Assembly: GCA_011939005.1 (NCBI GenBank) | Contig: GCA_011939005.1_4858.1 | Source of the DNA: a phage | Direction: 5' to 3' (one strand) | Length of the DNA stretch: 64,000 nucleotides | Shown here: piece by piece, positions 43,417 through 60,127 of the stretch | How the letters are laid out: each line of letters opens with the position of its first letter | How positions within the stretch are numbered: position 1 is the stretch's first letter | Notes under the pieces: model-generated | What the model was told of the DNA's origin: nothing | Databases searched by the model: none | What the model saw: only the letters and a program-made list of their open reading frames with translations | Position numbers and translations under genes: made by a program

Positions 43417-45585
43417 CTATTTCTTTGGCCGCACCCACGGTTTAGGGGCGGATTTGGTATACGGATTACATTCCATCATCTTACCGAGGTAGGCATCGTA
43501 ATACACGAAGCGATCGACATAGAACTTCTCCACCGGTGCACTACTGGTAGCCGATTTCACCCGGTTGCGTTCCACAGCGAGGCTAATCGCCCCGGTAGGT
43601 GCGGGTTTTAGCGTGAACATTACCGCGCGGTTGTAACGCCAAGTGTCGTGCACAATATCAAACTCCGATACACAGTGTGCCATGATACCAAACAATGTGG
43701 TGGCTGGTAAGTTGGCTACAGCATCGCCGTATGGTGTTCCCACCAAACCGCCGGGTATGTTTTGCTTTTTGAACAGCGTACCTGAAATAATCGTACCTAA
43801 GAACTCCACAACTACAGGCTTGGTTGGGTCGGTGACTTTATCTATCCCATCCGCACTGGCCAATCGGTTGGCATCTAAATCTGCGAGGTAGTCGAGGAAC
43901 TCTTGGTACTCGTCGGTAACATTCGGTTTCACCGTTCCGACGGATACCCAGTTGACGATACTTTTATTCCCACCGACAGCTTCGCCTGCCATCCCAGGGC
44001 GAGTCCATGACATCCCGTCTTCACGACCGTAGACATAGACTGGCGAGCCGGTAGCCGGGGTGTTCCATTGCTCGAACGCTGTATATCGTCCCGGCTGGCC
44101 CCAATCCCCACCCGGACCGCCATAGTAGCGACTCTGGTAGCCGGTAAATTGCGCGACGACTAACTGGGTAGCACCGCCTTTGTCACGGGACCCAGCTAAG
44201 CCGTTACGGTTATTGGTGCCGCTGGGCACCGCCGCGCCTGGCCCGAGAGGCGCACCACCAGCTCCACCGATCTTGGTGGTGCTAAACGCATAGTAGTCGC
44301 CCCCACCCCCACCACCGGCGATGGTGCCGTAGTTTTCGATGGTGACTTTGCCACGGAAGGTATCGCTAATGTGGATTGCGTCAGCTCCGTCCGCTGATGT
44401 GTTCGCAGGCATAGAGTAGACCACACCCGAACCACCACGACCAAGAATGGTTCCCCGGTTAACGAAGTTCCAAACCACCTCGCCAATTTGCGGCAATTCG
44501 TCGATAACGAACGTCGGTTTCAGGTTGCTGTCGCGATAAACGAAAGCCCCCGCATCTACGGTCACGTTAACAAACAAACGCCCGCACGCCGCATGGTTGG
44601 TCAACGTTGTGGCCCAGTAGCTGTCCGAAAGTTGCGACGTAGTTGTGTAGTTCAGGTTAAGGGTTTGCTCGTTATCTTGATAGCGTGCTACATTCAACGT
44701 GGCACTGCCCATGACTTTGTACGAACCCTCTACGGGTGCCAATTGCACTTGTCTCGGCCACTCGCCTGCCAGGTTCTCTACAGGAGCAATTTCGTTTACA
44801 TCAAAAACACTCCGAATGCCGAGTGTCTCGATGGCCAGAGCATCGTGCAGGCTACCGGTGAAATCATCCGGGACGTATGTGGTTTTGCCTGCATATGTCT
44901 CGAGTTTGTTACGTGAGAAGAACACATACTTCGTTCCAAACATCCCGCTCCCCGGTCTAGCGGTCAAAGCTACGACGCTGTTATACGCAGAGGTTTGGCC
45001 TATATCCTCCGGGGACATCGGGGCGCTGACATCGACTTTATCAAGATCCACGATCCGTTTGGTTGCATTAGAGTAGAAGTTAATCCACTGCTGCTTATTC
45101 GCAGCCTTTAGCGTGAAAATGATATTGGTAACAGTGTAGACAGTGTTGATATCCACGTCACCGTTTATCACATCTAGCGTTTGGCTGCCGTACCAGATAA
45201 GACTTGTCTGTTTCGCCTGGAACGTGATGCGCGCAGCATTGTTTGTCCAAGTGATGGGCAGGTCTTCAAAGTCGTCGGTTAAAAAGGTAATCCCTAGTAG
45301 AGTGTCTAAATGCGGCAACAGTTCGTGGATGGACGCACAAGTGGGAATGGCATCCAACTTAACCTTGGCGAAATAATCAGCAATATTTTGCTTCGTGACT
45401 TGGGCCGTAATTTGACCGTAACTAGAATACCCCGGACCCCCTGTCAGTGTGACGTCTAGGGTTTTTTCGTCACGATGCGCCACGGACACCAGGCGTACGT
45501 TAGCGGGGTCTACTGCTTTGGCGACCGCGTTTTTACGGTTGAGCGACCGAATCACGGTCGCCACTAAATCGGGAGTGTATGACAT
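43417..45585 (-). CDS. tail fibre-like protein with Gly-rich segment (722 aa)
   Basis: ATG with AAGGTG RBS; N-terminus resembles the family domain; GGGGGG and Gly-rich stretch; C-terminus SAPKPWVRPKK parallels SKTAPVPWYPAL of 45600..46919. Confidence 0.8.
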   Translation of the reverse strand: MSYTPDLVATVIRSLNRKNAVAKAVDPANVRLVSVAHRDEKTLDVTLTGGPGYSSYGQITAQVTKQNIADYFAKVKLDAIPTCASIHELLPHLDTLLGITFLTDDFEDLPITWTNNAARITFQAKQTSLIWYGSQTLDVINGDVDINTVYTVTNIIFTLKAANKQQWINFYSNATKRIVDLDKVDVSAPMSPEDIGQTSAYNSVVALTARPGSGMFGTKYVFFSRNKLETYAGKTTYVPDDFTGSLHDALAIETLGIRSVFDVNEIAPVENLAGEWPRQVQLAPVEGSYKVMGSATLNVARYQDNEQTLNLNYTTTSQLSDSYWATTLTNHAACGRLFVNVTVDAGAFVYRDSNLKPTFVIDELPQIGEVVWNFVNRGTILGRGGSGVVYSMPANTSADGADAIHISDTFRGKVTIENYGTIAGGGGGGDYYAFSTTKIGGAGGAPLGPGAAVPSGTNNRNGLAGSRDKGGATQLVVAQFTGYQSRYYGGPGGDWGQPGRYTAFEQWNTPATGSPVYVYGREDGMSWTRPGMAGEAVGGNKSIVNWVSVGTVKPNVTDEYQEFLDYLADLDANRLASADGIDKVTDPTKPVVVEFLGTIISGTLFKKQNIPGGLVGTPYGDAVANLPATTLFGIMAHCVSEFDIVHDTWRYNRAVMFTLKPAPTGAISLAVERNRVKSATSSAPVEKFYVDRFVYYDAYLGKMMECNPYTKSAPKPWVRPKK

Positions 45586-45599
45586 GGTGACACCTTAGT

Positions 45600-46919
45600 C
45601 TATAGCGCTGGATACCAAGGGACCGGGGCAGTTTTGCTATATGGACTGTAGACCATATAGCCGCCTTTGCTTGGGTCGTAATAGATGAAATAGTTACAGT
45701 AATTCGAGTAGAGGCTCGTCATTTGTTTGGATTGGTATCCGTTACGGTATAGTCCCTGGTAAGTAGTAGCTGATGTCGTGGTGGTGTAAGCAGTGTGGTA
45801 CAGTACCCGACGTCGGTTAGCAATACTTTCTTGGAACATCTCTTCGGTCGGAAACGCGTGTTGCATCAGCCGTCGAATACTCCCGGTACAGTATCGAGTG
45901 CCATACGGGGAACCCGTTAAATCATCCGCAGTTTCAGGCGATTCTGCCCGAGTCAACACGTACTCGTTTTGATACAACGTGACGCTCATCGAATTTGGGC
46001 TGGTTTCCCGGAAACTCATGTAACGCGCATAACGTTCGACGTCCTCTTCCTGCGCCAAATAGGCCACGTTATTTTTCGGACCAAAGTGCAAGAAGAACGG
46101 ACGGCGGAGATTACCCATATCCTCAGGTGGCGTCAACTTCACGCAGTAATTGTACTCCCCACGCATATCAGGGTCTAAGCCTGGGTTGTTATTGCGTGTA
46201 GCGACATACCCATAGAGGTCATACGGGTTATCAGTAGCAGCATTACCGATAGTGAACGGGATGCCCGACCATGCCGACAGCGCCGCGATGAACTGGGTCA
46301 TGTACGAGTTACTGTTTAGTCGCAGCGGGGTACCCATCTGGATATTGATTATCTGTTGGGTGTACATGCTCCAGTCGAGTCGATAGACCGTGCTGTAAAC
46401 ATCCATGGGTTCCCAAGCTCCGGTTTCGGTGGTGTGGTACAAGTCGGCAAAGCTGGGCTCTTCACGAATAAAGCTAATAGGAATGTGACCCGTGAATGCG
46501 GGGTTATCCGATTTAATCGCCACCGTCCGATCGCCCGTTGCCACAGTGATCATTGCAAACTGGCTGTCAGGATACGTTAAATCGTCAGCAGTAAGCACCA
46601 GCCCACAAGCTGCGGAAATCCGGTCGATGATGTCGCGGTAGACCGTCGCCCGATAAGGTACTTTAACCGGTACGCTGACGCCTTTAAAATACTGCGAAAG
46701 GTTTAAGCGGTCGTAGTAGATGTCCATCTTACCGCTGTAACCACCACCCTGTAATCCGTTTACCACGATACGGCTGTTGCGACCATCGCGCAAGGCATTG
46801 GTTAAAGGACCTTGTAATAACGCCACGTTGGTTGCGTTGAGCGGTTTCTTGAGCTGCGGGTTATCACGATTAATCTGATCCCAAACCAGTTGCATGACAG
46901 GTTTGTTATAGTTGATCAT
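45600..46919 (-). CDS. family paralog, C-type (439 aa)
   Basis: N-terminus MINYNKPVMQLVWDQINRDNP and VYYDRLNL motif shared with other members. Confidence 0.8.
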   Translation of the reverse strand: MINYNKPVMQLVWDQINRDNPQLKKPLNATNVALLQGPLTNALRDGRNSRIVVNGLQGGGYSGKMDIYYDRLNLSQYFKGVSVPVKVPYRATVYRDIIDRISAACGLVLTADDLTYPDSQFAMITVATGDRTVAIKSDNPAFTGHIPISFIREEPSFADLYHTTETGAWEPMDVYSTVYRLDWSMYTQQIINIQMGTPLRLNSNSYMTQFIAALSAWSGIPFTIGNAATDNPYDLYGYVATRNNNPGLDPDMRGEYNYCVKLTPPEDMGNLRRPFFLHFGPKNNVAYLAQEEDVERYARYMSFRETSPNSMSVTLYQNEYVLTRAESPETADDLTGSPYGTRYCTGSIRRLMQHAFPTEEMFQESIANRRRVLYHTAYTTTTSATTYQGLYRNGYQSKQMTSLYSNYCNYFIYYDPSKGGYMVYSPYSKTAPVPWYPAL

Positions 46920-46929
46920 TGCAACGTCC

Positions 46930-46965
46930 TAAAAAAGAAAATAGGCCCCGAAGGGCCTATTTTTA
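46930..46965 (-). terminator. rho-independent terminator
   Basis: Hairpin taggccc-cgaa-gggccta with T-run on minus strand. Confidence 0.55.
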
Positions 46966-47143
46966 GCTGTTATGGTGAAGTACGCTATCCCTTTAACTCC
47001 AGCTGCTTCGACGTCAGTTTGGATAACCACGCGGCCGTACGCTTTATTAGCGAAATTGAATCAGCGCTGATTCGACCTGCGAGTTCAGGGTTATCCCTTA
47101 CGACTTGTTGGCAGAGCAGTTCCAGTGCGCTATACAATCCCAT
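46966..47143 (-). pseudogene. decayed remnant of a family paralog (N-terminal about 30 codons joined out of frame to C-terminal about 28 codons)
   Basis: Intact RBS and ATG at 47143 encode MGLYSALELLCQQVVRDNPELAGRISADSI (compare MGLYTEPSMELLCQQIVRDNPGLAGKITADSI at 50555); region 46965-47070 is about 80 percent identical to 54051-54155 (3' end of 54050..54877) with a 1-nt deletion. Confidence 0.5.
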
Positions 47144-47154
47144 GAAGTCTCCTG

Positions 47155-48054
47155 TTAAGGCAGAACGAGTTCAAGTACCGCGATAGAACGTATTGTATTG
47201 GTTTCGTATCTACCGTACGACGGCGACTCTGGGTAGGGTGGACGGTTGTACCACTGATTGTAAATGTCAGACATAGCCGCAAAGAATGCAGATTGTTGGG
47301 CAGTAGTCGAATCGATTGAACCGACCGGAAGGTCGTCAAAGCGCGGCAACTGCCCACTGTAGTTGTACAGGCGCGCGAAAGTGTTAAACCACTCACCGTC
47401 GAGATACAACTCACTGTTACCGCTTCTAACGTTAGTCGTCCAGAATCTGTAGTCGAACAAATACGGCAAGCGCACCACGTATTCGTAACCGTTCTTCGCC
47501 ACCGTGCGGCGTTGGTTACGTGCAGTGGCCCAGCTCGGTACAAATCCATTGCCATCCTGGCCGTACATCAGCCCCTGGTTATAAATGAACTGCGGGCTAG
47601 CGTATATTATCGAGTTATCGGACATAAACAGAATACGGTTTTTGTAAATGAATTTATGCCAGGCACCAACGGCGGAACTGAACATATTCACCACGAGGCT
47701 GTTCAGTTCCGCGTTAGTGAATAACTCTGCTGGCGTTACTGTTCCAAAGTATCCAGCGTGCCAGTCGCCGTATAACAGCTTCTGGGGGCCAGGCCCGGTG
47801 TCTAAAAAGAACCCTTGGGCGGTAGGGGTGTTGAAGACACGCTCACCGTCTTTAACCGCAGCTATCCAATAACGGTAAGTGGTGTTGTTTTCCACAGCGT
47901 TGTCTTCGTACGATGTAGCGTCACCCGGAAGGGTTGCCAGAGGCGTTCCCGGTGCATTAACATCAATGGTGGCGTTGCCCGGCGTCTTGCGATAGATTTC
48001 AATGTTATCGAGCGCCTGTGGCTTCCGTTGTGCAAAGTTTAATGTAATAGGCAT
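47155..48054 (-). CDS. module protein B2 (299 aa), FN3-like N-terminus
   Basis: ATG at 48054 with GAGGAT RBS; paralog of 50569..51492 (IEIYRK...TYRYW, DTGPGPQ..GYFGTV). Confidence 0.75.
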   Translation of the reverse strand: MPITLNFAQRKPQALDNIEIYRKTPGNATIDVNAPGTPLATLPGDATSYEDNAVENNTTYRYWIAAVKDGERVFNTPTAQGFFLDTGPGPQKLLYGDWHAGYFGTVTPAELFTNAELNSLVVNMFSSAVGAWHKFIYKNRILFMSDNSIIYASPQFIYNQGLMYGQDGNGFVPSWATARNQRRTVAKNGYEYVVRLPYLFDYRFWTTNVRSGNSELYLDGEWFNTFARLYNYSGQLPRFDDLPVGSIDSTTAQQSAFFAAMSDIYNQWYNRPPYPESPSYGRYETNTIRSIAVLELVLP

Positions 48055-48056
48055 GA

Positions 48057-49046
48057 TTAATCCTCGATAAGCTCGATTACTGGAATCCAAATACCGCCCA
48101 CGGTCGCACCAGGGACATGTTGTATACGCTGGAGGTTATCCACGGTATCAGTGGAATCCGTCGTCGCTGTTCCGCGCGTCAGCCCCAACTTACGGTCTGG
48201 GTCAAACTCCTGACAATGCACCCCACGGCCACTCACCACCGATCCATTTCCGAATATGCTGATGTTCGACCGCGTTAACAGGGACATCACTTTTTTCTTT
48301 GCTGGGAACCAGGTACTTATCCCATAGATGAGTCGGTTGTATTCGCTATCGGCAGTATACGGTGACACGTCATGGATTTTTCCGTCCCACTGTGCATCGA
48401 GCGCCATGACCGGACTTTCACTGTCGTGTGTTAAACCGCGCAGCAATCGCATCCGATAGCGGTCACCCAACCACGTAAACTCCCCAGACTGGTCAACGTC
48501 AGGTAAATCACCATGACCGCCTTCCGGACCAGGTCCCGCCACACCGTACAGCAAACCCGCGTTATAAATCGCATCACGGCTATACAGCGTGTTGCCGTTC
48601 ACACGAAGACCACTAAGCAGATACAGAATTTTACCGTCTAGCTGGAACTTAAACAAGTACAGCTTAACAGTTGGGTCAATTCCAGAAAGGGCCACAAACC
48701 CTGGCGGATAATCACCCACGCTAGGCAATTCATCGTACGCCACATTCCCGTAATACGCAAAGCGGTCATCACCGTACTGTGGAGTCACGATGCCGATACC
48801 GCGACGGTTCTGAATCAGAATTGATTTCTGCGGACTGAACAGTGTCCGGCTTCCCACTGTCACGGTGGTCATGTAGTAATACGTTGTCCCCAGTATCGCT
48901 GTTCGGTCAGTATACTCAGTTTCCCCGTTAGTGAACGTTGCCAGAGGTTCAGGTAATGCCGTACGCACCAGAGGTTTGGTGTCGCGGTACAGCTTCACGG
49001 TCGAAGCCCCAGGGTTATTGTTCGTCCAACGAATTGTAAAAGCCAT
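48057..49046 (-). CDS. module protein A2 (329 aa), FN3-like N-terminus
   Basis: ATG with AGAGGTA RBS; paralog of 51502..52500. Confidence 0.8.
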   Translation of the reverse strand: MAFTIRWTNNNPGASTVKLYRDTKPLVRTALPEPLATFTNGETEYTDRTAILGTTYYYMTTVTVGSRTLFSPQKSILIQNRRGIGIVTPQYGDDRFAYYGNVAYDELPSVGDYPPGFVALSGIDPTVKLYLFKFQLDGKILYLLSGLRVNGNTLYSRDAIYNAGLLYGVAGPGPEGGHGDLPDVDQSGEFTWLGDRYRMRLLRGLTHDSESPVMALDAQWDGKIHDVSPYTADSEYNRLIYGISTWFPAKKKVMSLLTRSNISIFGNGSVVSGRGVHCQEFDPDRKLGLTRGTATTDSTDTVDNLQRIQHVPGATVGGIWIPVIELIED

Positions 49047-49058
49047 TGTCGTTACCTC

Positions 49059-50555
49059 TTATTGGAATCCATCCAACTCACCGTTAGTATCGCCCAGAGT
49101 AATTTTTGAAGGTTGGGCGATTTGGTCAGTCGTGAGAATAATCGGTCTAATCTTAACGCTAGCCATGCCTGTTACCGCGACGGAATATGCACGTTCATCA
49201 TTGTCCGTCGTGGCAAGCAGAGGACGTGGTGAGTCTGATGACGCTTCCCGTACCCAGGCAGGGGTGGCAGTTTCGGTGTTGTCGGTGTTGAAAACTAACG
49301 GACGTGGATTCGCTGCAGCGGAGGTTTCCGTAATCGGCACCACACGAAGCGATTCATTTTGGTCGATGTCCGTCAGAGTAACCACGGACGGTGCCCATGT
49401 TAGTTCTGCACCTTCGTCAATCAACGGCACAGGTTCATTGGCAACATCAATCATCTCCAAGATTGGCCAAAAGCCAGAAGAGGTGTAGATGTAGGTGTAT
49501 GAACGATAGCTCCCACTGATAGACTGGTAATACGCTTGGTCGGCACCGAACTGGTGTCGTAACCACACGTAATCCAGGAAGTTAGCATCAGTCGTGCTAA
49601 GAGTTCCCCATTCCCCATATACGTTCACCGACCCCAATTTGCTGGTCAGTGACAGGATAGAGGTGATTGACGGCGGTTTACTCCAATCAGGCGCGGCGGC
49701 GTTCTCGGTGTAATACGGGATAGACATTCTGAAATAATGCGTTCCTTCATCATCCCGTTTTACCATGTATTTCAACTGTTCAACATCGACAGGTGTGTAA
49801 GTCGACTTCGGGCGAGGTCCTGCGTCTCCGGAATCAAATATTGCACCCTTGTTGTACAGGTCTGCCCAGGTAACGTTGCAAATCGCACGGGTCGGAACAA
49901 ACACTACCGCCCCATTCAGAAAGAATTTGAGCCACTTGATAGCGTAGCGGTTAGGCCAGTTGGTGCCGTTATAGAGGGCATACACCATTTCATCAGATGT
50001 GAATAACTCTTCCGCGCTTACCAGCCCAAAAAATCCGTATAACTCATTACCGGCCATTAATCCTTTTGGCCCAGGGCCCGACTTCGGATACATCGCAATC
50101 GGTTCGTAAACATAGGTCATCTTGCATGACCCGGTATAGCACAAGGAGTTAGCGTGCGCCGTCAGAGTTACAGTTTCTGGCGTAGCGTATTTCATTAATG
50201 CAACGTTTGGACTGGTGATGTCACTCGCGGTTAAGTTCAACCCGTTCAATTCATTGAACGCCGGTAACGCTTCCGCATGGGTTTGTGCGCTACGTGGAAT
50301 ACTCACCATCTTCGGGCCAGACTTGAACAGACTGGCCAGATTCAACCGGTCGTAATAGACCGTTATTTCCCCAGCAAATCCTTTACCGGGTTTACCTACC
50401 AACGTAATCTGTGTGTTTCGTCCGTTAACGTTTTTCGCAACAGGAACACCCCTGACCCCAATGGAGTCAGCGGTGATTTTTCCTGCTAAACCGGGATTGT
50501 CACGCACAATTTGTTGGCAGAGCAGTTCCATTGAAGGTTCTGTATACAACCCCAT
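49059..50555 (-). CDS. module protein C2 (498 aa), family N-terminal domain, C-terminus ...NGELDGFQ
   Basis: ATG with GGAG RBS; TVYYDRLNL motif; about 27-aa C-terminal repeats. Confidence 0.8.
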   Translation of the reverse strand: MGLYTEPSMELLCQQIVRDNPGLAGKITADSIGVRGVPVAKNVNGRNTQITLVGKPGKGFAGEITVYYDRLNLASLFKSGPKMVSIPRSAQTHAEALPAFNELNGLNLTASDITSPNVALMKYATPETVTLTAHANSLCYTGSCKMTYVYEPIAMYPKSGPGPKGLMAGNELYGFFGLVSAEELFTSDEMVYALYNGTNWPNRYAIKWLKFFLNGAVVFVPTRAICNVTWADLYNKGAIFDSGDAGPRPKSTYTPVDVEQLKYMVKRDDEGTHYFRMSIPYYTENAAAPDWSKPPSITSILSLTSKLGSVNVYGEWGTLSTTDANFLDYVWLRHQFGADQAYYQSISGSYRSYTYIYTSSGFWPILEMIDVANEPVPLIDEGAELTWAPSVVTLTDIDQNESLRVVPITETSAAANPRPLVFNTDNTETATPAWVREASSDSPRPLLATTDNDERAYSVAVTGMASVKIRPIILTTDQIAQPSKITLGDTNGELDGFQ

Positions 50556-50568
50556 GGCTTTTACTCCG

Positions 50569-51492
50569 TTACGGTAAGACTAATTCAAAAGCAAAGAATA
50601 TCGTGGCCGAGTTCCCGACACCTGCGGTGTTACTAATCACCATAGGCACGGTGCCATACGCATAAGCGAATATGTTGTTGCTCCACAAAGGAGCTAATAC
50701 AGCGGCACCTGACTCATTCGGCTGCACAGTCGCGCCTTGTCTTGCAAGTGAGTCAATCGCACCAAGACCGAGGGCTGCGAACTGTGCACCGACAGGATAC
50801 AAACGGCCCATTGTGTTTCGCCATTCACCGTTGTTGTAATCCTGTCCTGAGAGAACAGCGTCGTACGGGACTGCGTAAGGTAATCGGATACGGTACGTAC
50901 GACCATCCTTCGTGACCTTACAATCTTGTTTAGTCGCCGTGGCTCCCTGCGGAACAATACTTCCGACATCATCGGTCCCGTACATCATACCGTACTGATA
51001 CGCCATTTGTACCGAGTTGGTTTTCGAATGCATCGTCGCTGGGAAGAAGACAATTCTCCCACGGAAAATAAACTTGTGCCATTCCTGAGGGTCGTAGACA
51101 AACATGTTTCCCTGCTGTGCAGTCAACATAAGCTTCAGCTCGGCGGTATTAAAGAACTCGGTATTCGGTACTGTACCGAAATAACCTGAAGCCCAGTCAC
51201 CACGCAAAATAGTTTGCGGACCCGGCCCGGTGTCCGGATAGAATCCTTGCGTAATCGGATTGCCGATAAGTCGTTCACTGTCCTTCACAGCAGCTACCCA
51301 ATAACGATAGGTTGTATTCTTCGTCAGAGTATCGATATTATCTACGAACTCTACCGCGTTGCCCGATAAAGTTGCGTGGGGTGTGCCTGGATTGTAAACG
51401 TCGATTGTTGCGTTCCAACCTTCCTTGCGGTAGATTTCAATCGCGGTAAGACCTTTGCTGGCTTGGGACGGCCAGCTTAACCGTATAGTCAT
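50569..51492 (-). CDS. module protein B1 (307 aa)
   Basis: ATG with AAGGGG RBS; paralog of B2. Confidence 0.8.
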   Translation of the reverse strand: MTIRLSWPSQASKGLTAIEIYRKEGWNATIDVYNPGTPHATLSGNAVEFVDNIDTLTKNTTYRYWVAAVKDSERLIGNPITQGFYPDTGPGPQTILRGDWASGYFGTVPNTEFFNTAELKLMLTAQQGNMFVYDPQEWHKFIFRGRIVFFPATMHSKTNSVQMAYQYGMMYGTDDVGSIVPQGATATKQDCKVTKDGRTYRIRLPYAVPYDAVLSGQDYNNGEWRNTMGRLYPVGAQFAALGLGAIDSLARQGATVQPNESGAAVLAPLWSNNIFAYAYGTVPMVISNTAGVGNSATIFFAFELVLP

Positions 51493-51501
51493 GACTGCCC
51501 C

Positions 51502-52500
51502 TTACTCGACCAGTTCAAAGATAGGGTAGTAACGCCCTTTCGTGGTGGGTGATAAATAGTTTATACGCTGAATCGTGGATACGGGTGTTCCACCGGCATT
51601 GTTAAAAATGCCACGATGGACCACACGGTCTTCCGCGGTGTCGTGTTCCATACAGAGAACTCCGGCACCGAAATACGTTGCCGAGGTTCCCAAATTAGCC
51701 TGCCCCAGATAAGTATAACTGTTCGCTGCCCAGTTAGCCCAACGCTGTTTCCTCGGCACCTCGTTAACCATCGTGTAAAGTAAATCGTTATACTCACACG
51801 GGTTGGTTAGAGAAGCGATTTCATCGTGGGTTTTCCCATTGTAGTCAGCTACGAAAGGATACGCAGGAGACTCGCTAGACGTCGTCAGGCCGCGAGGAAG
51901 ACGCATAATGTACGTATCCCCTTTGTGGACTATCTTAGCGTCTTGTGGAGTGGCCGGTAGCGTTCCATGGCCGTTCTCTGGGCCAGCATCGCCCGTACCA
52001 TAGACTAAACCAGCTTGATAGAGGGAAGCCCAGTCCACAGGCGTATTCGGGAACTGCGACGTGTTAGATAGCATGTAATAGATCTTCCCGTTTCGGGTAA
52101 ATTTATACAACGCCACACGATCGGTTAACAGGTTAGGGAACATCGCCAAAAATGCAGGTGGCATTTGCGACGGAAGCCACTGTTCGTCGTAAGGAACCTC
52201 ACCCATAAACCCTAAACGGTCGTTGCCGTTTAGAATAGTCATTGGGCCTATCCCGCGTTTTACCTCAATGGTATATTTCTGGCTAGACGACGCTACTGTT
52301 TTACCGTTGGCGGTTACCGTCAGAAGGTAATAATAGGTTGCGCCTGGTGTGGCGGTGGTATCACGCCATTCTGTCTCGCCGTTTGAGAGCGTTGCAATCG
52401 GTTCAGGCAAAGCGCTTGGTGTGATATCTTTAACATCACGGTAGATTTTTACTACCGTAGAGATTACGTTTGGATTTTTCCAACGCAAAGTAAAAGACAT
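51502..52500 (-). CDS. module protein A1 (332 aa)
   Basis: ATG with AGAGGTA RBS; paralog of A2. Confidence 0.8.
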   Translation of the reverse strand: MSFTLRWKNPNVISTVVKIYRDVKDITPSALPEPIATLSNGETEWRDTTATPGATYYYLLTVTANGKTVASSSQKYTIEVKRGIGPMTILNGNDRLGFMGEVPYDEQWLPSQMPPAFLAMFPNLLTDRVALYKFTRNGKIYYMLSNTSQFPNTPVDWASLYQAGLVYGTGDAGPENGHGTLPATPQDAKIVHKGDTYIMRLPRGLTTSSESPAYPFVADYNGKTHDEIASLTNPCEYNDLLYTMVNEVPRKQRWANWAANSYTYLGQANLGTSATYFGAGVLCMEHDTAEDRVVHRGIFNNAGGTPVSTIQRINYLSPTTKGRYYPIFELVE

Positions 52501-52511
52501 AGATGATACCT

Positions 52512-54002
52512 CTACTTAAAGCCGTCCAGTTCACCGTTAAGAGACGTTAACGTTGTCTTGTCAGGGGGCGTATACATTTCAGCGGTAGCCGCAATAGGTT
52601 GAAAATCGACAGTCTTCGGCAGCATTAATGCAGGCGGATGCAGTGCGAAACTGTTTTCTGAAGTAACGGCCACAGGTTGAAAATCGACAGTCTTCGGCAG
52701 CATTAATGCAGGCGGATGCAGTGCGAAACTGTTTTCTGAAGTAACAACTACCGGTTCGAAATCGGTAGTATCTGGATTACCGAGCACCAACGGCTTGAGA
52801 CTAAACGTGTTTTCTGCGGACACGCTGCACGGTTGGAGGCTGTAATCTACCGCGCCGTGGATATCTTCTAAGCCCAAGGTAACCGTGGACTTATCCACCA
52901 ACTCCAGCACCGGGAACCAGTAGTAGTTGCCCGCACTCGATGATTTTTCTAAGTTTGTCCAACTTGCTCCAGACAACGTCGCCATGCGATGATTGGCGAC
53001 GTTGGTGTTCAGTGTATCTTTCAATAAACAGAACAGCGTCCAGTAACTGTTAATCGGTTTGTCCCACGTTCCATTATACAGAAAGTTGAACATCTCAAAC
53101 TCACTACCTGCTAACTCAGCGGCAGTTGGGGTGCCGCTGACGTATGGGTCTTTCCCGGCACTAGGTAGACGAACGCGGAAGTAAAACCTTTTGTTGTCTG
53201 CGCCTGTAAAGCTAATGATGCGTCCCTGGTTAACGGGCGTCGCCGCAGGGTATTTACCATTATCATCTGTTCCGTAAACGAGTCCGTTTGTATATAACGT
53301 ATTCCAGGAGATGGAGCTAGCGACAGGACTGATCGGAAGGTAAATAACCCTACCCTGGTAAAAGAACTTGTACCAACCTTCGGCACCAGAATGTACCGGT
53401 GGTAACGCACCGGCCGATATAGTGGCATTAAGAAGTTGAGAGTGTGTAAACAACTCTGCAATTGTGGTTGTTCCGAAATAACCCGCGATAGTGTTACCTT
53501 GCAGCAACGTTTTAGGGCCAGGTCCAGAATCGGGGTAAATTGCACCGCTCGGGACGGTATAACGTATCGTTAAGCTGCCTATAAACGCAGGGCAATTACC
53601 TGAGATATTTAATTTCAACGTCTGCGGCGAAGCGCTCGGTTTAGGTAAACTTGCGTCAGGTGACTGCAAATCAGAAGCAACTAATGTAAGCCCCAATGCG
53701 TCGTTTATTGCAGGTAGCGCGTCTCGTACCGTTAAGACTGTATCTTTGATAGCCACAGTCGGCACAAAATTAAATAAAGTGGCCAGGTTAATCCGGTCGT
53801 AGTACACGGTAACATTACCTTGTACACCTGTCCCTGGATACCCGGTGAAAACAGCTTTGGTGTTACGTTGGTTTAACGTAACTGAAGTTGGGCCGCTGGT
53901 TAAAGCAGCGATAGCCGGTGTCAGCTTAACAACTAAATCAGGGTTATCCCGATTGACTTGGTCGTATACAAGCAGTGCCGACTCCTTCGAGTAAAATAGC
54001 AT
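52512..54002 (-). CDS. module protein C1 (496 aa), C-terminus ...NGELDGFK, contains 78-bp tandem duplication
   Basis: ATG with GGAG RBS; family N-terminus MLFYSKESALLVYDQVNRDNP; TVYYDRINL. Confidence 0.8.
   Translation of the reverse strand: MLFYSKESALLVYDQVNRDNPDLVVKLTPAIAALTSGPTSVTLNQRNTKAVFTGYPGTGVQGNVTVYYDRINLATLFNFVPTVAIKDTVLTVRDALPAINDALGLTLVASDLQSPDASLPKPSASPQTLKLNISGNCPAFIGSLTIRYTVPSGAIYPDSGPGPKTLLQGNTIAGYFGTTTIAELFTHSQLLNATISAGALPPVHSGAEGWYKFFYQGRVIYLPISPVASSISWNTLYTNGLVYGTDDNGKYPAATPVNQGRIISFTGADNKRFYFRVRLPSAGKDPYVSGTPTAAELAGSEFEMFNFLYNGTWDKPINSYWTLFCLLKDTLNTNVANHRMATLSGASWTNLEKSSSAGNYYWFPVLELVDKSTVTLGLEDIHGAVDYSLQPCSVSAENTFSLKPLVLGNPDTTDFEPVVVTSENSFALHPPALMLPKTVDFQPVAVTSENSFALHPPALMLPKTVDFQPIAATAEMYTPPDKTTLTSLNGELDGFK
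52597..52752 (-). repeat. near-identical in-frame tandem duplication (2 x 78 bp) inside CDS 52512..54002
   Basis: ggttgaaaatcgacagtcttcggcagcattaatgcaggcggatgcagtgcgaaactgttttctgaagtaac occurs twice with period 78 bp; encodes TSENSFALHPPALMLPKTVDFQPVAV twice. Confidence 0.8.
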
Positions 54003-54017
54003 AGGGACTCCGCATCG

Positions 54018-54046
54018 CCAAAAGAGGGGGCTCCGAAGAGCCCCTA
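54018..54046 (-). terminator. rho-independent terminator
   Basis: Hairpin ggggctc-cgaa-gagcccc followed by short T-run on minus strand. Confidence 0.5.
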
Positions 54047-54049
54047 CAC

Positions 54050-54877
54050 TTAGCTGTTATAGTGGTAGTACGCCACGCCTTTCACGCCTTCCTCATCGAT
54101 GCCCGTTTGGACAACCACGCGGTCGTACGATTTGTTAGCGAACTGAGCGGTGGATGTCGGCACATCCTGAACGGTGTTGCTGTTCAGTGGCCCCGCGTAG
54201 TTCGGAATACCCAGGTCATCCAACACCTTACGCAATCCAGCCCACTGCGGTAGGCCAGAAGCATCTACTGTCAGTAGGTTTTTATACGCGGTAAAGTCAA
54301 TACCATACGTCAACAAATCAATACACTTCTTACCGAGAGACGGTGAAATAGGCTCTTGAATCGCATTCAAGACATCCGATTTCACCGAAGTGTCTAGTAC
54401 CGGTAAACCACGGTTATAACGCAACGTCGCAGAACCGATATAAGCCGGAGATGTCGATAGCGCTACGATGTTCTGTGTATTGGTGTAATTTGGGGTATTG
54501 GGACCCGCCAGTGGGAGGTTATAGATATCGATTGCAGAGAAGTTTACTCCGTAAGTATCCAAGAGCACCGAAAAGGCTGAATGGAGGTTGGGCGCGTCAA
54601 ACGTGACGAACTGCGCCTGGACAGAAGGACCCCACGGCAATAACCGCGCTAAGTTCACACGGTCGTAGTAAACGGTGATTGCGTCTCGAAATCCGGAACC
54701 CTGAATACCGCGCAAGCGTGCCGACGTATTGCGGTTGTTGGAAGCTGCATTAACGGGAACCTGTGTCACTTTCTCCACGTAGCAGTTTGCCGGCGACGCT
54801 TTAATAGGTAGGTTTGGGTTATCCCGGTTAATGAGGTCAAAGACCAACTCGTTTGACGGCTTAGCATAGTTGATCAT
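54050..54877 (-). CDS. family paralog P7 (275 aa)
   Basis: ATG at 54877 with GAGGTA RBS; N-terminus MINYAKPSNELVFDLINRDNP; TVYYDRVNL. Confidence 0.75.
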   Translation of the reverse strand: MINYAKPSNELVFDLINRDNPNLPIKASPANCYVEKVTQVPVNAASNNRNTSARLRGIQGSGFRDAITVYYDRVNLARLLPWGPSVQAQFVTFDAPNLHSAFSVLLDTYGVNFSAIDIYNLPLAGPNTPNYTNTQNIVALSTSPAYIGSATLRYNRGLPVLDTSVKSDVLNAIQEPISPSLGKKCIDLLTYGIDFTAYKNLLTVDASGLPQWAGLRKVLDDLGIPNYAGPLNSNTVQDVPTSTAQFANKSYDRVVVQTGIDEEGVKGVAYYHYNS

Positions 54878-54880
54878 CAA

Positions 54881-55768
54881 TTATACCTCGCTTGGATCGT
54901 CCAGATCGTTGAACTGGAGATACAACGTTCCGACGATGGTGGTACAGGTAACAGGCAGTTTCAACGCCAGCACATACTTGTACTTCGCGTTTGTCGGCAT
55001 TGCAACAGGGTCATTCAGACCAACACTGATAACCTCCGCGCCCGCCAAACCGTAGGAAGCGGAAGTGGTCGCTACCCATGCAGTACCCGTGATATCTTTC
55101 AGCAGGTTAACCATATCCGTTAACGGCTGTCCGGACAGAATACCCGGCTTGTATGCCAGCAGAGCATCTCGGTACTTAGTGAAGTTGTACGGGTAGGAAT
55201 AAACCTCTGCAATGACCGCAGTAACATTTTCGGAACCCATCTGACCGTTCGGGTATTTCAGACCGGTCAGGACGTTAGTGGTGACTGCAGAGACTAACGA
55301 CTCATCACCTTTCACGACTTTAAATGTCGCCTGTCCAACCCAACCGATAGACTCTGGATGTGCAACAACACGCACAGTACCTTCGGTCTTATCACCGTTC
55401 CATTCGATATCTGCGTCCTGCAGGTCAGCTTCTTCCAGAACAAAACCGTAACGTTGGTTCAGTCCAGGAATGGCCGCATACAAGGTTTCGTTGGATGGGC
55501 CGATCGCCAACGTGTCACCGATCAGCACTAACAAGTCTTCGACTTTCATGCGGTTGTAGAAGACATTTTTCTTACCCGACCAGGTAGAGCCCGTTACCCC
55601 ATCTGCCGTAATTTTAATTTGCGTGTTACGGTTAGTCAGCGTTTCCTTCTCCGTACCACGGATGTCCTTTGGCGAGGACCAGATGATGTCAGTCATCTTA
55701 ACAGCAAGCGAGTTCTGTGCGTTCACTGCTGCCAACAGGACGTCTTTAGAAGGTTGATAAATAGCCAT
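54881..55768 (-). CDS. family paralog P6 (295 aa)
   Basis: ATG with AGGAAT RBS; conserved N-terminal domain, divergent C-terminus. Confidence 0.75.
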   Translation of the reverse strand: MAIYQPSKDVLLAAVNAQNSLAVKMTDIIWSSPKDIRGTEKETLTNRNTQIKITADGVTGSTWSGKKNVFYNRMKVEDLLVLIGDTLAIGPSNETLYAAIPGLNQRYGFVLEEADLQDADIEWNGDKTEGTVRVVAHPESIGWVGQATFKVVKGDESLVSAVTTNVLTGLKYPNGQMGSENVTAVIAEVYSYPYNFTKYRDALLAYKPGILSGQPLTDMVNLLKDITGTAWVATTSASYGLAGAEVISVGLNDPVAMPTNAKYKYVLALKLPVTCTTIVGTLYLQFNDLDDPSEV

Positions 55769-55778
55769 TCGCTAATTC

Positions 55779-56618
55779 CTAGTTGTTGTAGTGCAACATA
55801 CACTCGCCGATTACTTTCGGGTCGTTCTGAATGCCGGTAATCAGCAATACGTTATCGTACGCTTTATTGGCGGTCGCCAACTCACTCGTTTTGTAGCGGG
55901 TAATTGTGCAGTTCGTCGGATCAAACGACGGTACCCCACGTGCGACCAATGTGGCCATCAGATTGGACGTGTAACCCAAATCAAAGTTACTTCCTACATC
56001 CATTCGCCCGTTCTTAAACGAGGCCATAACCTGCACTTCATCGGTAAAGTCTTCCCCGTACGTCAAGAAGCCCATGTATTTCTTACCAGTGCTTGCTGCT
56101 GCAGGGTGGTTCAAAGCCAACAAGATGTCGTTTACCACGAGGTCTTCGAGGCTATTCTTACCCCGGATAGACATAAAGGTGATGCTGCCAGTGTATTGGA
56201 TACAGCTAGCGTTAATACGCATCGTGTTGTTTACGTTCAGATAAACGTATTGTTCTGGGATATCATCTGCAACCAGGTTTAATCCATAACGACCGTTCAG
56301 GTTCTGCGCAAACGCAGTACGTTTCGACTCCACGTTCAACCAACCGTAGGCATTCGGTGCAGTTACCTGAGGTGTCATGTTCTTAAATAAGTCGTTCAGC
56401 GACAAGCGCTTATAACGGAACGTCTGGGGACCGATATAGCCACGACCTTGACGACCACGAATGATAATCTCAGTATTGGCACCGCTTGCTGTCGGTGTGA
56501 TTGCTTTCGGCGTACCGATGATAGCATTGTCTAAACCCATCGGTAGCACAGCATCCGGGTTTTCGGCATTAATCGCATCGTACAGATATTGTCGCTGAGA
56601 CAGACTATATAAAGCCAT
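55779..56618 (-). CDS. family paralog P5 (279 aa)
   Basis: ATG at 56618 with perfect GAGGAGG RBS (track start 56636 is TTG). Confidence 0.75.
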   Translation of the reverse strand: MALYSLSQRQYLYDAINAENPDAVLPMGLDNAIIGTPKAITPTASGANTEIIIRGRQGRGYIGPQTFRYKRLSLNDLFKNMTPQVTAPNAYGWLNVESKRTAFAQNLNGRYGLNLVADDIPEQYVYLNVNNTMRINASCIQYTGSITFMSIRGKNSLEDLVVNDILLALNHPAAASTGKKYMGFLTYGEDFTDEVQVMASFKNGRMDVGSNFDLGYTSNLMATLVARGVPSFDPTNCTITRYKTSELATANKAYDNVLLITGIQNDPKVIGECMLHYNN

Positions 56619-56634
56619 AATAGCCTCCTCGGCC

Positions 56635-56680
56635 AAAAAAGAAAGGAGTAGCCGGGAGGAGGATTTCCTCCTCCCAGCGA
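56635..56680 (-). terminator. rho-independent terminator inside the paralog array
   Basis: Hairpin gggaggagga-tt-tcctcctccc followed by T-run on minus strand. Confidence 0.55.
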
Positions 56681-56687
56681 GGCCTAA

Positions 56688-57599
56688 TTAGGCATTAAAG
56701 TGCAGGTACATGATGCCCTGGAAGTTGGTGCACAGAGTGTCATCCAGCTGCAGCAGCAGAACCTGGTTGTAAGCAGTGTTTGCACCTTCAACCGGTTTCT
56801 TAGGTTCGTCGCCTGAAGCAGTGCCATCGTCAGTAGTAGAACCAACGTACAACACGTTAGCACCTTTCAGGTTATAATCCGCAGGCTCATCAGATGCAAC
56901 CCACAGTTCCGGCACAACTTTATTCAGCTCAACCGGGAATGCAGAGTCGCCAGCGATAACACCTTTCGCCTGTACTTTCAGGAATGGTGCGATTGCTGTG
57001 CAGTCTACACCGTAAGAGTAGATGTAACCCTGACCCTTCGCTTCGCTTGGACCATCTGGGTAAACCAGGCCGTCGAGCTTGGTTTGTGTTACCACCAGAC
57101 TCAGACGTTCACCAACCTGAGGCTTAGCACCGATTTTAACCGGGATGCTGCCCAGATAAGCGTAGCAGTCTTCTTTGAAGGTAATGACGTGGTCAACCGG
57201 TGCTGGGTCCGGATCGTTCGGGTTAGTCAGCGGCGGGTTGGTATTTTCCGGAATAGCCGCCGGAACAATATCATCTTCGGTCAGTTTCAGACCGTATTGG
57301 GTGTTCAGGGTCGTCAGCAGGTCGGTGGTGGTTTTCGGCAATTTAACGTCGAGGTATGCCGTTACATTACGGAACAGCGCACCGCCTTCCAGGCGATTAT
57401 AAGTCACGTCCTGAGTACCGATGTACCCGGAGTTCTTTTTCGCAGTCAGGGTCATGCTGGTATTGCGATCAGCACCTTCATCGCTAATAGGGGTCGGTGT
57501 GCCGAGCGTTATTTTAGAAAGTTCCAGTTCTGCGTCTGGGTTTTTCTCATTAATAAAATCCAGAACCAGCTTATCTGACGTTTTGTTTAAAGGTTTCAT
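56688..57599 (-). CDS. family paralog P4 (303 aa)
   Basis: ATG with AAGGAAG RBS. Confidence 0.75.
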   Translation of the reverse strand: MKPLNKTSDKLVLDFINEKNPDAELELSKITLGTPTPISDEGADRNTSMTLTAKKNSGYIGTQDVTYNRLEGGALFRNVTAYLDVKLPKTTTDLLTTLNTQYGLKLTEDDIVPAAIPENTNPPLTNPNDPDPAPVDHVITFKEDCYAYLGSIPVKIGAKPQVGERLSLVVTQTKLDGLVYPDGPSEAKGQGYIYSYGVDCTAIAPFLKVQAKGVIAGDSAFPVELNKVVPELWVASDEPADYNLKGANVLYVGSTTDDGTASGDEPKKPVEGANTAYNQVLLLQLDDTLCTNFQGIMYLHFNA

Positions 57600-57620
57600 T
57601 CTTACTTCCTTTACTCAGGA

Positions 57621-58466
57621 TTAATCAGGGTCGTTGTAATGCAAATACAAACGCCCGCCAAAATTCAGACAGTACAACGACAGCTCCACAATCAGCACGT
57701 TGTCGACTGCTGGGTTGGTTGGTAATTCCGCTTTGTTACGCCCGTTATAGACGACGACGGCTTCACGAAGGTTAAAGTCGATTGGGTTACGGTACGTTGT
57801 CCAGTTATCACCGGTGACCGTTTTGAGAATCTGCGCCAGACGTTCTGCGGTTATCGCAGCACCTAGTCGTTGAAATTCCTCCGCGAAATTATCAAAGCGC
57901 CAGGGATACGAATAAACTGCACCTTGACCGACCTTGATGTTAAAATACGGATACTCGTAAGGCATCACTGTTAACGGTTCGAAGTTTGCAGGAAGCAACG
58001 CATCGCCTGGTAACAGCTGTACCTGTTGTTGCCCTATCCAACCTAAAGAAGAGGGCGTGGCAATCAGATCCACACGCCATGTCTTCCTGTCGATTTCGGT
58101 ATTCACCACATCTGCAGGTTTAAGGCTGAGACCGTAATACTGGTTAATTAACCCGACCACGTCATGCATCTGGTAAACAGCATCGAGACGTGCAGGAACA
58201 CGTAAAGGTTGAATCCCGTCTGGGTCGGTAAACATGTCTGCGAAGTCAACACGATCGTAATAGACGGTAGTGGCACCGATAGCATTAGCCGTGGCCAATG
58301 CCTGAATGCGCACCATCGCGTTGTGACCGTTAGCTTTTGCCAAGTCTTCGTCAGACGTTGGAATCGCAGGGACACCAAAAACAACATCCTCGACTTTTAA
58401 ATCGAGATTGTTTTCGACGTTAACTTCCGCGATAATAATCTTTTCAGCTGTGGCTAAAAGTGGCAT
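57621..58466 (-). CDS. family paralog P3 (281 aa)
   Basis: ATG with AAGGAT RBS. Confidence 0.75.
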   Translation of the reverse strand: MPLLATAEKIIIAEVNVENNLDLKVEDVVFGVPAIPTSDEDLAKANGHNAMVRIQALATANAIGATTVYYDRVDFADMFTDPDGIQPLRVPARLDAVYQMHDVVGLINQYYGLSLKPADVVNTEIDRKTWRVDLIATPSSLGWIGQQQVQLLPGDALLPANFEPLTVMPYEYPYFNIKVGQGAVYSYPWRFDNFAEEFQRLGAAITAERLAQILKTVTGDNWTTYRNPIDFNLREAVVVYNGRNKAELPTNPAVDNVLIVELSLYCLNFGGRLYLHYNDPD

Positions 58467-58476
58467 GTCAAAATCC

Positions 58477-59319
58477 TTATATCGGGAGATAATGAAGGAT
58501 GAGATTACCGGCGTAGTTGCTGTCCGCAGCTAGCTTGATAATCGCCACACGCTGATAATCGGGGTTGTAACTATCGTTCGGTGTGACTGAAGTTATCCCC
58601 ATAAATCGTGCACCTTGGAGTGCAATTTGTTCAGGTTGCGCATTCGCCCCCGTCACATATGCAAACTTTAATGGCACCACTTCATTCAACAACTCAACAT
58701 CCGCTGCAGTGATTGCACGGTTGTAAACCCAATCGGTGGTGAACTGTTTTTGCAGTTCAGTCCAATCGTAACCATACGCCACATACTCGGCCTGTGGTTT
58801 ACTAGCAACCACGAACGGTGCGATTATTGCGCTGAGGTCAACATCCGTCACCACATCCGCCAAGTTCGGGAAGAACTTCGCAAAGCGTAAACGGAAACCA
58901 CCTTGCCAGGCCAAGCAACCGGGCTTAATAGTCACATCGATTAACCAGCTTTCTCCCAAATCTTTTACTGACTGGTCAACGATATCGTCGGCAACTAAAG
59001 ACAAGCCGTATTTCGCATTCAGAAACGGCAACAACTCAGAGAGTTTATTTACCGGGTCGGCAACGACTACCGGTATTACGTTCCTGAACAGAATTTCCAT
59101 TTCGATACGGTCGTATTCGAGCGTAACGTTGCCTTTGTAGCCCTTGCCGTTCAACCCGTATAAGAGCACACGTGTATTCCGGTCAGCGCCAGGCGTTTGG
59201 ACAGACTCAGGGAAGCCAGTTGCAACCTGCTCCCATGTGAGTGGATTGGCCGTTAATCCGTTCTGTCGGTTAATAGCATCTAACAACATCTCTTTCGAGG
59301 GCTTATCGTAAATAGACAC
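58477..59319 (-). CDS. family paralog P2 (280 aa)
   Basis: GTG start with strong AGGAGGG RBS; N-terminus MSIYDKPSKEMLLDAINRQN. Confidence 0.75.
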   Translation of the reverse strand: MSIYDKPSKEMLLDAINRQNGLTANPLTWEQVATGFPESVQTPGADRNTRVLLYGLNGKGYKGNVTLEYDRIEMEILFRNVIPVVVADPVNKLSELLPFLNAKYGLSLVADDIVDQSVKDLGESWLIDVTIKPGCLAWQGGFRLRFAKFFPNLADVVTDVDLSAIIAPFVVASKPQAEYVAYGYDWTELQKQFTTDWVYNRAITAADVELLNEVVPLKFAYVTGANAQPEQIALQGARFMGITSVTPNDSYNPDYQRVAIIKLAADSNYAGNLILHYLPI

Positions 59320-59329
59320 CTATACCCTC

Positions 59330-60127
59330 CTAGTTGTTAAAGTGTAAGTTGAGGCTGCCCTGGAAGTTCGTACATTTATCGGTCAGTTGCACTGACACGA
59401 CTTTCGCGAACGCCGTATTTGCTCCCGGTAAGTCTGCAGGTACGCCGTCGAATACGACAGTAGCACCACGCAAGTTATACGGGGATGGGGTATCTTCAGC
59501 CACCCAAATCTCAGGAACACATTTGTTGAGTTCGATTGCTAACGCCGTGTCATCTACTTCGATACCGACCGCTAAGAGGCTCAGGAAACGAGAGATGTGG
59601 CTACAATCGATGTCGCGCGAATAGATATACGCCTGACCCAACTGGATGTCCTGGTGATCCGGGTACAGAAGACCGCTCAACTCTGTATTGGTTATTACTT
59701 CTGCCAGAGGTGTAGCAGGTTTCAGCTCGATGACCGCTTGACTTCGCCACTCGTGGGAAGTTTCAACAGCAACGACTGTGTGAGTCTGTCCATCAATGGG
59801 GTTATCTTCGATATCCTCAGGTAAGATAGACAGATTAAAACGCTCGTTAATCGCCGCGAGTAAGTCGTGCGTGGTATGCACATCTTCATCGCCAAAGGCA
59901 ACATCGCCTGTAAGGTAGTCCTCTAATGGACGACGATGATAGTCCACAATCACTTGCGTACCTTCATCACCGCGCATTTTCGAGGTTAGTACCACCTCCG
60001 AATCACGACCGTCTACTGACACAACCTCCGGCAGTCCGATATCAACATCGTCAAAGGTAAGCGGTGGGCTTATCTTATTCTCTTCGTTGATGAGTTTTAG
60101 CAGATTCTGTTTTGAAGTAAAAGACAT
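59330..60127 (-). CDS. family paralog P1 (265 aa), first gene of array
   Basis: ATG start; palindrome ttaactcgagttaa lies 5 nt upstream on the mRNA. Confidence 0.7.
   Translation of the reverse strand: MSFTSKQNLLKLINEENKISPPLTFDDVDIGLPEVVSVDGRDSEVVLTSKMRGDEGTQVIVDYHRRPLEDYLTGDVAFGDEDVHTTHDLLAAINERFNLSILPEDIEDNPIDGQTHTVVAVETSHEWRSQAVIELKPATPLAEVITNTELSGLLYPDHQDIQLGQAYIYSRDIDCSHISRFLSLLAVGIEVDDTALAIELNKCVPEIWVAEDTPSPYNLRGATVVFDGVPADLPGANTAFAKVVSVQLTDKCTNFQGSLNLHFNN

Follow-up and report, generated by a model that had tools for sequence, protein, structure and literature searches.

The NGELDGF sequence that ends three predicted proteins in a 64,000-nucleotide (nt) stretch of phage DNA (GenBank assembly GCA_011939005.1, contig GCA_011939005.1_4858.1; the whole stretch is called the window here) is, judged from sequence, the local form of a connector motif that phiKZ-like jumbo phages have in their DUF7941 virion proteins. 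The best explanation for this tail, and one that we regard as moderately probable, is that the DUF7941 connector is a hook that joins subunits head to tail. The three genes are all on the minus strand. The first, at 52512-54002, encodes a protein of 496 amino acids (aa), termed A1, which is the ortholog of gp145 of Salmonella jumbo phage SPN3US. The second, at 49059-50555, encodes a 498-aa protein of the same architecture, A2, the ortholog of SPN3US gp148. The third, at 39988-40515, encodes a 175-aa protein that is the ortholog of SPN3US gp160 and consists of a DUF7941 N-terminal domain (N-domain) and the connector motif only.

The window is best described as DNA of an SPN3US-like giant phage. 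Positions 47000-54100 were 97% identical to SPN3US (Seoulvirus) and its relatives, and the three tail genes matched SPN3US_0145, SPN3US_0148, and SPN3US_0160 by position. The 175-aa protein was 97% identical to its SPN3US counterpart; its start was taken as the ATG at 40515, as annotated in SPN3US, while the mechanical open reading frame (ORF) reaches 40557. The ORF coordinates given for the three genes in the initial annotation of this DNA were correct.

Tail motif and protein family

A six-frame translation of the window contained exactly three matches to NGELDGF (52518-52538, 49065-49085, and 39994-40014), all on the minus strand and each at the end of a gene, followed by one residue (K, Q, and V, respectively) and a stop codon. 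This search bore out the observation in the initial annotation that the three genes share a C-terminal tail. The conserved unit was longer than the heptapeptide, being a 14-mer of the form K-[TI]-[TD]-L-x-x-x-N-G-E-L-D-G-F. On the minus strand, it lies at 52518-52559 in A1 (KTTLTSLNGELDGF, then K and the stop codon at 52512-52514), at 49065-49106 in A2 (KITLGDTNGELDGF, then Q and a stop), and at 39994-40035 in the 175-aa protein (KTDLSTTNGELDGF, then V and a stop). The C-terminal peptides of the tail-bearing proteins are TDLSTTNGELDGFV, TTLTSLNGELDGFK, and ITLGDTNGELDGFQ, and the peptide form of the tail is KTDLSTTNGELDGFV. A position-specific scoring matrix (PSSM) derived from the tails of homologs scored the three sites at 32-43 bits, and no other of the 62,122 window positions exceeded 10.6 bits; the three-tail match is therefore, by this measure, far beyond chance.

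The tail had been described as shared by three otherwise different proteins with divergent heads. This description was wrong, as all three are paralogs that begin with the same DUF7941 domain. DUF7941 (PF25613) was matched at the N-termini with 110.6, 105.3, and 43.5 bits compared to a Pfam cut-off of 27, the 43.5-bit score being that of the 175-aa protein. Both long proteins matched phrog_3589 from end to end, and the 175-aa protein matched phrog_4862. When the AlphaFold 2 (AF2) model of A1 was searched with Foldseek, its N-domain matched the solved N-domain of phiKZ gp127 (9xqd_0; E = 3.8e-5, probability 1.0, template modeling score for the target 0.58). No significant match in the PDB was obtained by Foldseek for the AF2 model of the 175-aa protein. 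Goslar gp22 and gp23, known as "fiber cloud" proteins, belong to the same Pfam family (bioRxiv 10.64898/2026.04.21.720040). The C-terminal globular domain (C-domain) of DUF7941, at profile positions of approximately 175-276, was absent from all three window proteins, as it is from Goslar gp23, so that truncated members are part of the family. The window has at least nine other DUF7941 genes, namely seven full-length genes at 54050-60127 and the genes at 45600-46919 and 43417-45585. In SPN3US, the same family is known as "paralog family B" (PMC5694885).

Relationship of the tail to the DUF7941 linker

The Goslar preprint divides DUF7941 proteins into an N-domain, a linker that is disordered, and a C-domain (10.64898/2026.04.21.720040). 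Goslar gp23 (180 aa) has only the N-domain and linker, ends in ...NVADGFVKPTVSVVG, and has the architecture of the 175-aa protein. We aligned the full-length paralogs of the window and of Goslar, the 175-aa protein, and Goslar gp23 with MAFFT, and the tail fell under the inter-domain linker, with ELSGL, KLDGL, and ELDGL as the column partners of ELDGF.

A profile search with the 175-aa family over 1.84 billion representatives returned 177 hits. Among hits of 140-200 aa, the pattern h-x-G-[FLYW] occurred in the last 30 residues of 45 of the 63 remote and 67 of the 82 close hits, compared to 11 of 265 and 2 of 330 control windows, respectively. Remote tails such as DLATVIANNVLDGLTYEPPV, PLDGTITNPELDGFDQPV, and KLSDIITDTVLDGFVYK bridge the two forms. 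A second PSSM was trained only on 43 of these remote short-protein tails and scored on the 62,122 window positions. The linkers of full-length paralogs ranked 1st, 3rd, 5th, and 11th, and the three tails ranked 2nd, 4th, and 7th (hypergeometric P of approximately 1e-14 for the linkers and approximately 1e-23 for having six of the targets among the seven best positions). These linkers, all on the minus strand and also placed by MAFFT, are at 59669-59710 (PLAEVITNTELSGL, in the gene at 59330-60127; the top hit at 27.7 bits), 57066-57107 (RLSLVVTQTKLDGL, in 56688-57599; rank 3), 55259-55300 (SLVSAVTTNVLTGL, in 54881-55768; rank 5), and 58825-58866 (NLADVVTDVDLSAI, in 58477-59319; rank 11).

The Pfam coordinates placed the tail in the same region. 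The DUF7941 profile ran unbroken through the tail of Goslar gp23 (residues 5-175 on profile positions 4-174 of 276) and covered the tails of the remote short proteins to position 172 or so; these tails lie at approximately 158-174, which is the linker region. A natural fusion protein, P0137, has three N-domains per chain, and the first helix of the next N-domain begins approximately 10 residues after each linker motif. Agreement among collinearity, the Pfam coordinates, and the remote-family PSSM leads us to take the identity of the tail with the DUF7941 connector motif, which comes after the N-domain, as established at the level of sequence; the three window proteins simply stop after it. The family-wide consensus of the connector is roughly [DP]-L-x-x-h-[VI]-T-x-x-[DE]-[LM]-[DN]-G-[FL].

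Conservation of the tail in homologs

Approximately 60 orthologs of the 175-aa protein (45-95% identity) were compared. Nearly all of them keep KTDLS[TAG]T[ND]GEL[DN]GF followed by 0-9 variable residues, and in remote relatives up to 21 residues trail the motif. The single residue after the heptapeptide, reported in the initial annotation, is thus real in the window but is a local detail. The tail was the third most conserved of 162 14-residue windows in the 175-aa family. Searching related phages for the motif had been set beforehand as the refuting test; A-type homologs were found to keep the tail down to 29% identity, so the test did not refute the proposal. In these comparisons, the tail behaves as a discrete module under selection.

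Several GenBank proteins of these families from Salmonella phage SPFM (P0060, P0063-P0069, P0094-P0098, and P0105) looked internally permuted or scrambled. For example, some of them begin with C-terminal sequence and finish with N-terminal sequence, which suggests artefacts of assembly or annotation.

Architecture and predicted structures

A1 consists of the DUF7941 N-domain (aa 1-150, 53553-54002), a globular middle domain (aa 152-376, 52875-53549), and a disordered leash of two to three "PKTVDFxPI" repeats (aa 379-481, 52560-52868), followed by the tail motif. The N-domain and middle domain were modeled confidently by AF2, while residues 379-496 (118 residues) had predicted local distance difference test (pLDDT) scores below 50, the motif itself scoring slightly above the leash. 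In this model, the C-terminus of A1 resembles a short linear motif that is flexibly tethered. In contrast, the 175-aa protein (62-sequence alignment) was modeled with a pLDDT of 94, and its tail (residues 161-175) was packed on the N-domain as a non-regular segment with one helical turn.

The A1 middle domain had no match in the PDB; it is common to the two genes downstream (phrog_1062). Two genes follow each long tail gene on the minus strand (50569-52500 and 47155-49046) and encode proteins of approximately 330 and 300-310 aa, termed B and C, which share the A-type middle "GPGP" domain and have no DUF7941 domain. The C-termini of B and C read ...ELV[E/LP] or ...ELIED, and some records label their relatives as glycosyl hydrolases. 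The leash of A1 contains a 78-nt tandem duplication (52596-52764), the first two copies of which are 100% identical. The duplication contributes one 26-aa "NSFALHPPALMLPKTVDFQPVAVTSE" unit, so that A1 has 496 aa compared to 470 aa for SPN3US gp145. The leash repeats are about as numerous as the downstream partner genes (B and C), a similarity that could be meaningful or fortuitous.

Proposed mechanism and alternatives

We propose that the connector of one subunit would dock on the N-domain of the next and so build head-to-tail filaments. On this view, the tail would act as a donor peptide by which the next subunit is held at its N-domain, and the 175-aa protein, being an N-domain plus a connector, would probably be the bulk building block or extender. 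In A1 and A2, a payload domain and a leash of approximately 118 residues would be inserted between the acceptor N-domain and the donor motif. DUF7941 proteins that have no recognizable donor motif, such as the product of 43417-45585, would end chains. That docking occurs in trans, that it has this polarity, and that this phage forms filaments at all is inferred by analogy with Goslar and phiKZ. In the Goslar preprint, AlphaFold 3 (AF3) docks the linker of one gp22/gp23 protomer, with or without its C-domain, on the next N-domain; purified gp22 forms filaments in negative stain; linker-only gp23 is present at approximately 2,140 copies per virion; and a head-to-tail dimer of phiKZ gp127 and gp126 was fitted into baseplate density (10.64898/2026.04.21.720040). 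In the phiKZ atlas, gp127 sits where the gp139 band of the outer baseplate ends (PMC13250141). In the SPN3US virion, gp160 is one of the most plentiful proteins (PMC5694885) and is in this respect like Goslar gp23. Of the roles offered in the initial annotation for the tail, docking is the best-supported reading, whereas no evidence was found for cleavage or recognition by a chaperone.

Several results weigh against the proposed hook or against its equation with the linker. When 11 full-length members were used to build a linker hidden Markov model (HMM), it missed the tails. The linkers, in turn, went undetected with the close-family tail PSSM (the best of them at rank 18 with 7.4 bits), and the hhalign alignment of the 175-aa family with the full-length family ended at residue 150. 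In the AF2 monomer of A1, the tail was left undocked (pLDDT 38-45), and the packing of the 175-aa tail in cis is as compatible with an intramolecular cap as with a trans hook. The tail was also cleanly lost in 5 of the 37 A-type homologs (Erwinia phages Caitlin, Machina, and others), which end in ...YTPPES*. The tail is thus dispensable on at least one paralog in some lineages. In Machina (L004, 16494-17867), the A1 ortholog stops exactly before the motif and the next gene begins 10 nt later; the other Machina paralogs retain their tails. The Erwinia A1 orthologs are thus natural tail-deletion variants. Finally, SPN3US proteomics found the family in tailless particles and called its members head proteins (PMC5694885, PMC10052503), an assignment that conflicts with a filament cloud anchored exclusively at the baseplate. 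Co-purifying free filaments or an attachment site on the capsid are possible causes of this conflict.

The packing in cis raises the alternative that the motif is the last element of the N-domain and completes or stabilizes its fold, with no joining role. The AF2 monomer of the 175-aa protein, with its tail at a pLDDT of approximately 88-90 on its own domain directly after the last beta-strand, is consistent with such a cap. However, in A1 and A2 a folded domain and a disordered stretch of 118 residues lie between the N-domain and the motif, which AF2 leaves undocked in A1. The solved model of phiKZ gp127 ends at residue 150, before the motif, the AF3 dimers in the Goslar preprint put the linker on the neighboring protomer (10.64898/2026.04.21.720040), and the N-domain of the tail-less Erwinia orthologs evidently folds without it. 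We consider a cap unlikely on these grounds. The tail could also dock on a partner outside DUF7941, such as the B or C proteins, the capsid, or the baseplate, and so be a virion-attachment tag with no polymerization hook. This reading would agree with the presence of the family in tailless SPN3US heads (PMC5694885, PMC10052503) and with B and C being virion proteins that have no DUF7941 domain. Yet the 175-aa protein has the same tail and no B/C cassette, the motif equals the full-length linker for which docking on an N-domain is predicted (10.64898/2026.04.21.720040), and natural fusions of the form N-domain, linker, N-domain exist, all of which make a different partner improbable.

A tag for processing, chaperone recognition, or modification, for example by nearby radical S-adenosylmethionine (SAM) enzymes, seems to us very improbable. 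Two radical-SAM genes, a DUF4376 gene, and a DUF1353 "tail assembly chaperone" gene do lie within 3 kb of the 175-aa gene, but the Pfam search revealed no protease or S74-type domain, and the part that is conserved is the motif itself, the trailing residues being few and variable. The same motif is internal in the full-length paralogs, and the prohead protease site AxE (PMC10052503) is absent from it. Peptide-level data on the tails were not found in the available parts of the SPN3US proteomics supplements (PMC5694885, PMC10052503), which are silent on processing either way. The reading to which we give the least credence is that the conserved 3' DNA is a homology patch for module swapping, the recombination junction of the initial annotation. 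The 3' conservation reported there exists as a 20-nt direct repeat of 85-95% identity at the three gene ends, and the cluster clearly gains and loses cassettes. But five of the seven motif codons differ synonymously (GAA/GAG, CTG/TTG, GAC/GAT, GGC/GGA, and TTT/TTC), and the flanks are unrelated and could not be aligned. The recombination scars that were observed (46920-47154 and its SPN3US equivalent) join in conserved 5' coding DNA, away from the tail, and the peptide is retained in proteins so divergent (29-45% identity) that homology at the DNA level is lost. These findings contradict the junction; because of the synonymous differences and the unaligned flanks, the conservation is attributed to selection on the peptide, with no recent transfer of DNA.

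Neighboring genes and SPN3US relatives

The gene at 43417-45585 (minus strand) encodes a 722-aa protein in which a DUF7941 N-domain is combined with a T4 gp38 adhesin-like domain (PF05268, E = 7e-18). No recognizable connector motif was found in this protein, which is a candidate receptor-binding chain terminator. Beside the 175-aa gene lie two radical-SAM genes and a gene for a DUF4376 protein (37402-38730 on the plus strand, the gene upstream of it, and 39235-39906 on the plus strand). The radical-SAM genes were assigned by synteny with SPN3US gp163 and gp164; they are approximately 1.3 kb from the 175-aa gene, and the long tail-bearing genes are 9-12 kb away.

"Paralog family B" of SPN3US (gp138-154, gp160, and others) has direct orthologs in the window at approximately 97% DNA identity. 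The tail is carried in SPN3US by gp145, gp148, gp151, and gp160; the fourth copy, in gp151, ends in ...KTDLATANGELNGF. The gp151-153 genes form a third A-B-C cassette that is absent from the window. At 46920-47154 (minus strand), there is a pseudogene scar consisting of the first 32 or so codons of an A-type gene (MGLYSALELLCQQVVRDNPELAGRISADSI) and a 3' remnant of a full-length DUF7941 gene, and SPN3US has a similar scar after gp153. The number of cassettes therefore varies by recombination in the conserved 5' ends of genes. The SPN3US papers place family B in the head or among the ejection proteins (PMC5694885, PMC10052503), and no mention of the tail motif was found in the text passages and supplements that were searched.

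Comparison with known systems

Although Goslar gp23 and the 175-aa protein have the same architecture, they have no pairwise BLASTP similarity (E = 35). The motif of the SPN3US clade is two residues shorter than that of Goslar gp23 and has its own KTDLS..NGELDGF signature. The arrangement of N-domain, middle domain, disordered repeat leash, and connector was not found mentioned in the available text of the Goslar preprint (10.64898/2026.04.21.720040). phiKZ gp127 and gp126 (PDB 9xqd; PMC13250141) are DUF7941 proteins as well, and the N-domain model of A1 superposes on that of gp127. Unlike the tail-bearing window proteins, they are full-length (N-domain, linker, and C-domain), and the deposited model does not resolve the linker.

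Donor-strand exchange in chaperone-usher and type V pili offers an analogy only, in that a terminal peptide is held by the next subunit in a non-covalent head-to-tail polymer. Membership of the donor-strand-exchange pilins was considered and rejected. The 175-aa model had no fold similarity to pilins (best Foldseek pilin match 6fqa, E = 0.28, not significant), and its tail was modeled as coil with one helical turn, whereas these pilins combine an incomplete Ig-like fold with a beta-strand donor. A self-cleaving C-terminal chaperone of the Peptidase_S74 type was likewise rejected, with no Pfam match and a conserved element of 14 aa compared to a domain of approximately 100 aa or more.

The 175-aa family profile also matched BspA-type surface proteins of Mycoplasma and Mesoplasma and a metagenomic lipoprotein (P0133, P0149, P0151, P0153, P0194, and P0176). 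The first 70 or so residues of the DUF7941 N-domain match the Pfam Spiralin domain of Mollicutes spiralin-type proteins, and a short DUF7941 protein passed the Spiralin threshold (33.6 vs 25 bits). In Mycoplasma and Mesoplasma, KTDLSTIATKELGDI or KTDISTLDLN.NAGAF precedes each tandem repeat of approximately 77 aa and resembles the tail. These are cellular lipoproteins with covalently tandem modules, unlike the tail-bearing phage proteins. The matches suggest that the N-terminal subdomain of DUF7941 is related to spiralin-type domains of Mollicutes; individual repeats score weakly and the totals are inflated by repetitive sequence, so that homology is only suggested. By contrast, the Goslar preprint calls the DUF7941 module exclusive to chimalliviruses (10.64898/2026.04.21.720040).

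Significance

The system belongs to the kind described in 2026, and the architectural variant here is the placement of the motif distally, on a leash. A bolder idea, to which we assign a low probability, is that the connector is a portable and self-sufficient docking peptide. Any payload ending in K..L...NGELDGF on a flexible leash would plug into a network of DUF7941 N-domains. Donors (the four SPN3US tails), extenders (the full-length proteins), and donor-less N-domain proteins that bear adhesin-like domains (for example, 43417-45585) would together encode a branched host-recognition filament cloud. The acceptor may alternatively be on the capsid, which, if true, would reconcile the "head" assignment in SPN3US with the "baseplate" model from Goslar.

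In phiKZ-like jumbo phages, few virion proteins are as abundant or as expanded as those of the DUF7941 family, which has approximately 20 paralogs in SPN3US and for which a role was first proposed in 2026. Assigning the putative hook to a 14-residue motif gives a direct experimental handle on it. The motif would also be a sequence rule by which paralogs can be sorted into bulk subunits, payload carriers, and chain terminators, and it offers a way into the disagreement over whether these proteins are located in the head or at the baseplate.

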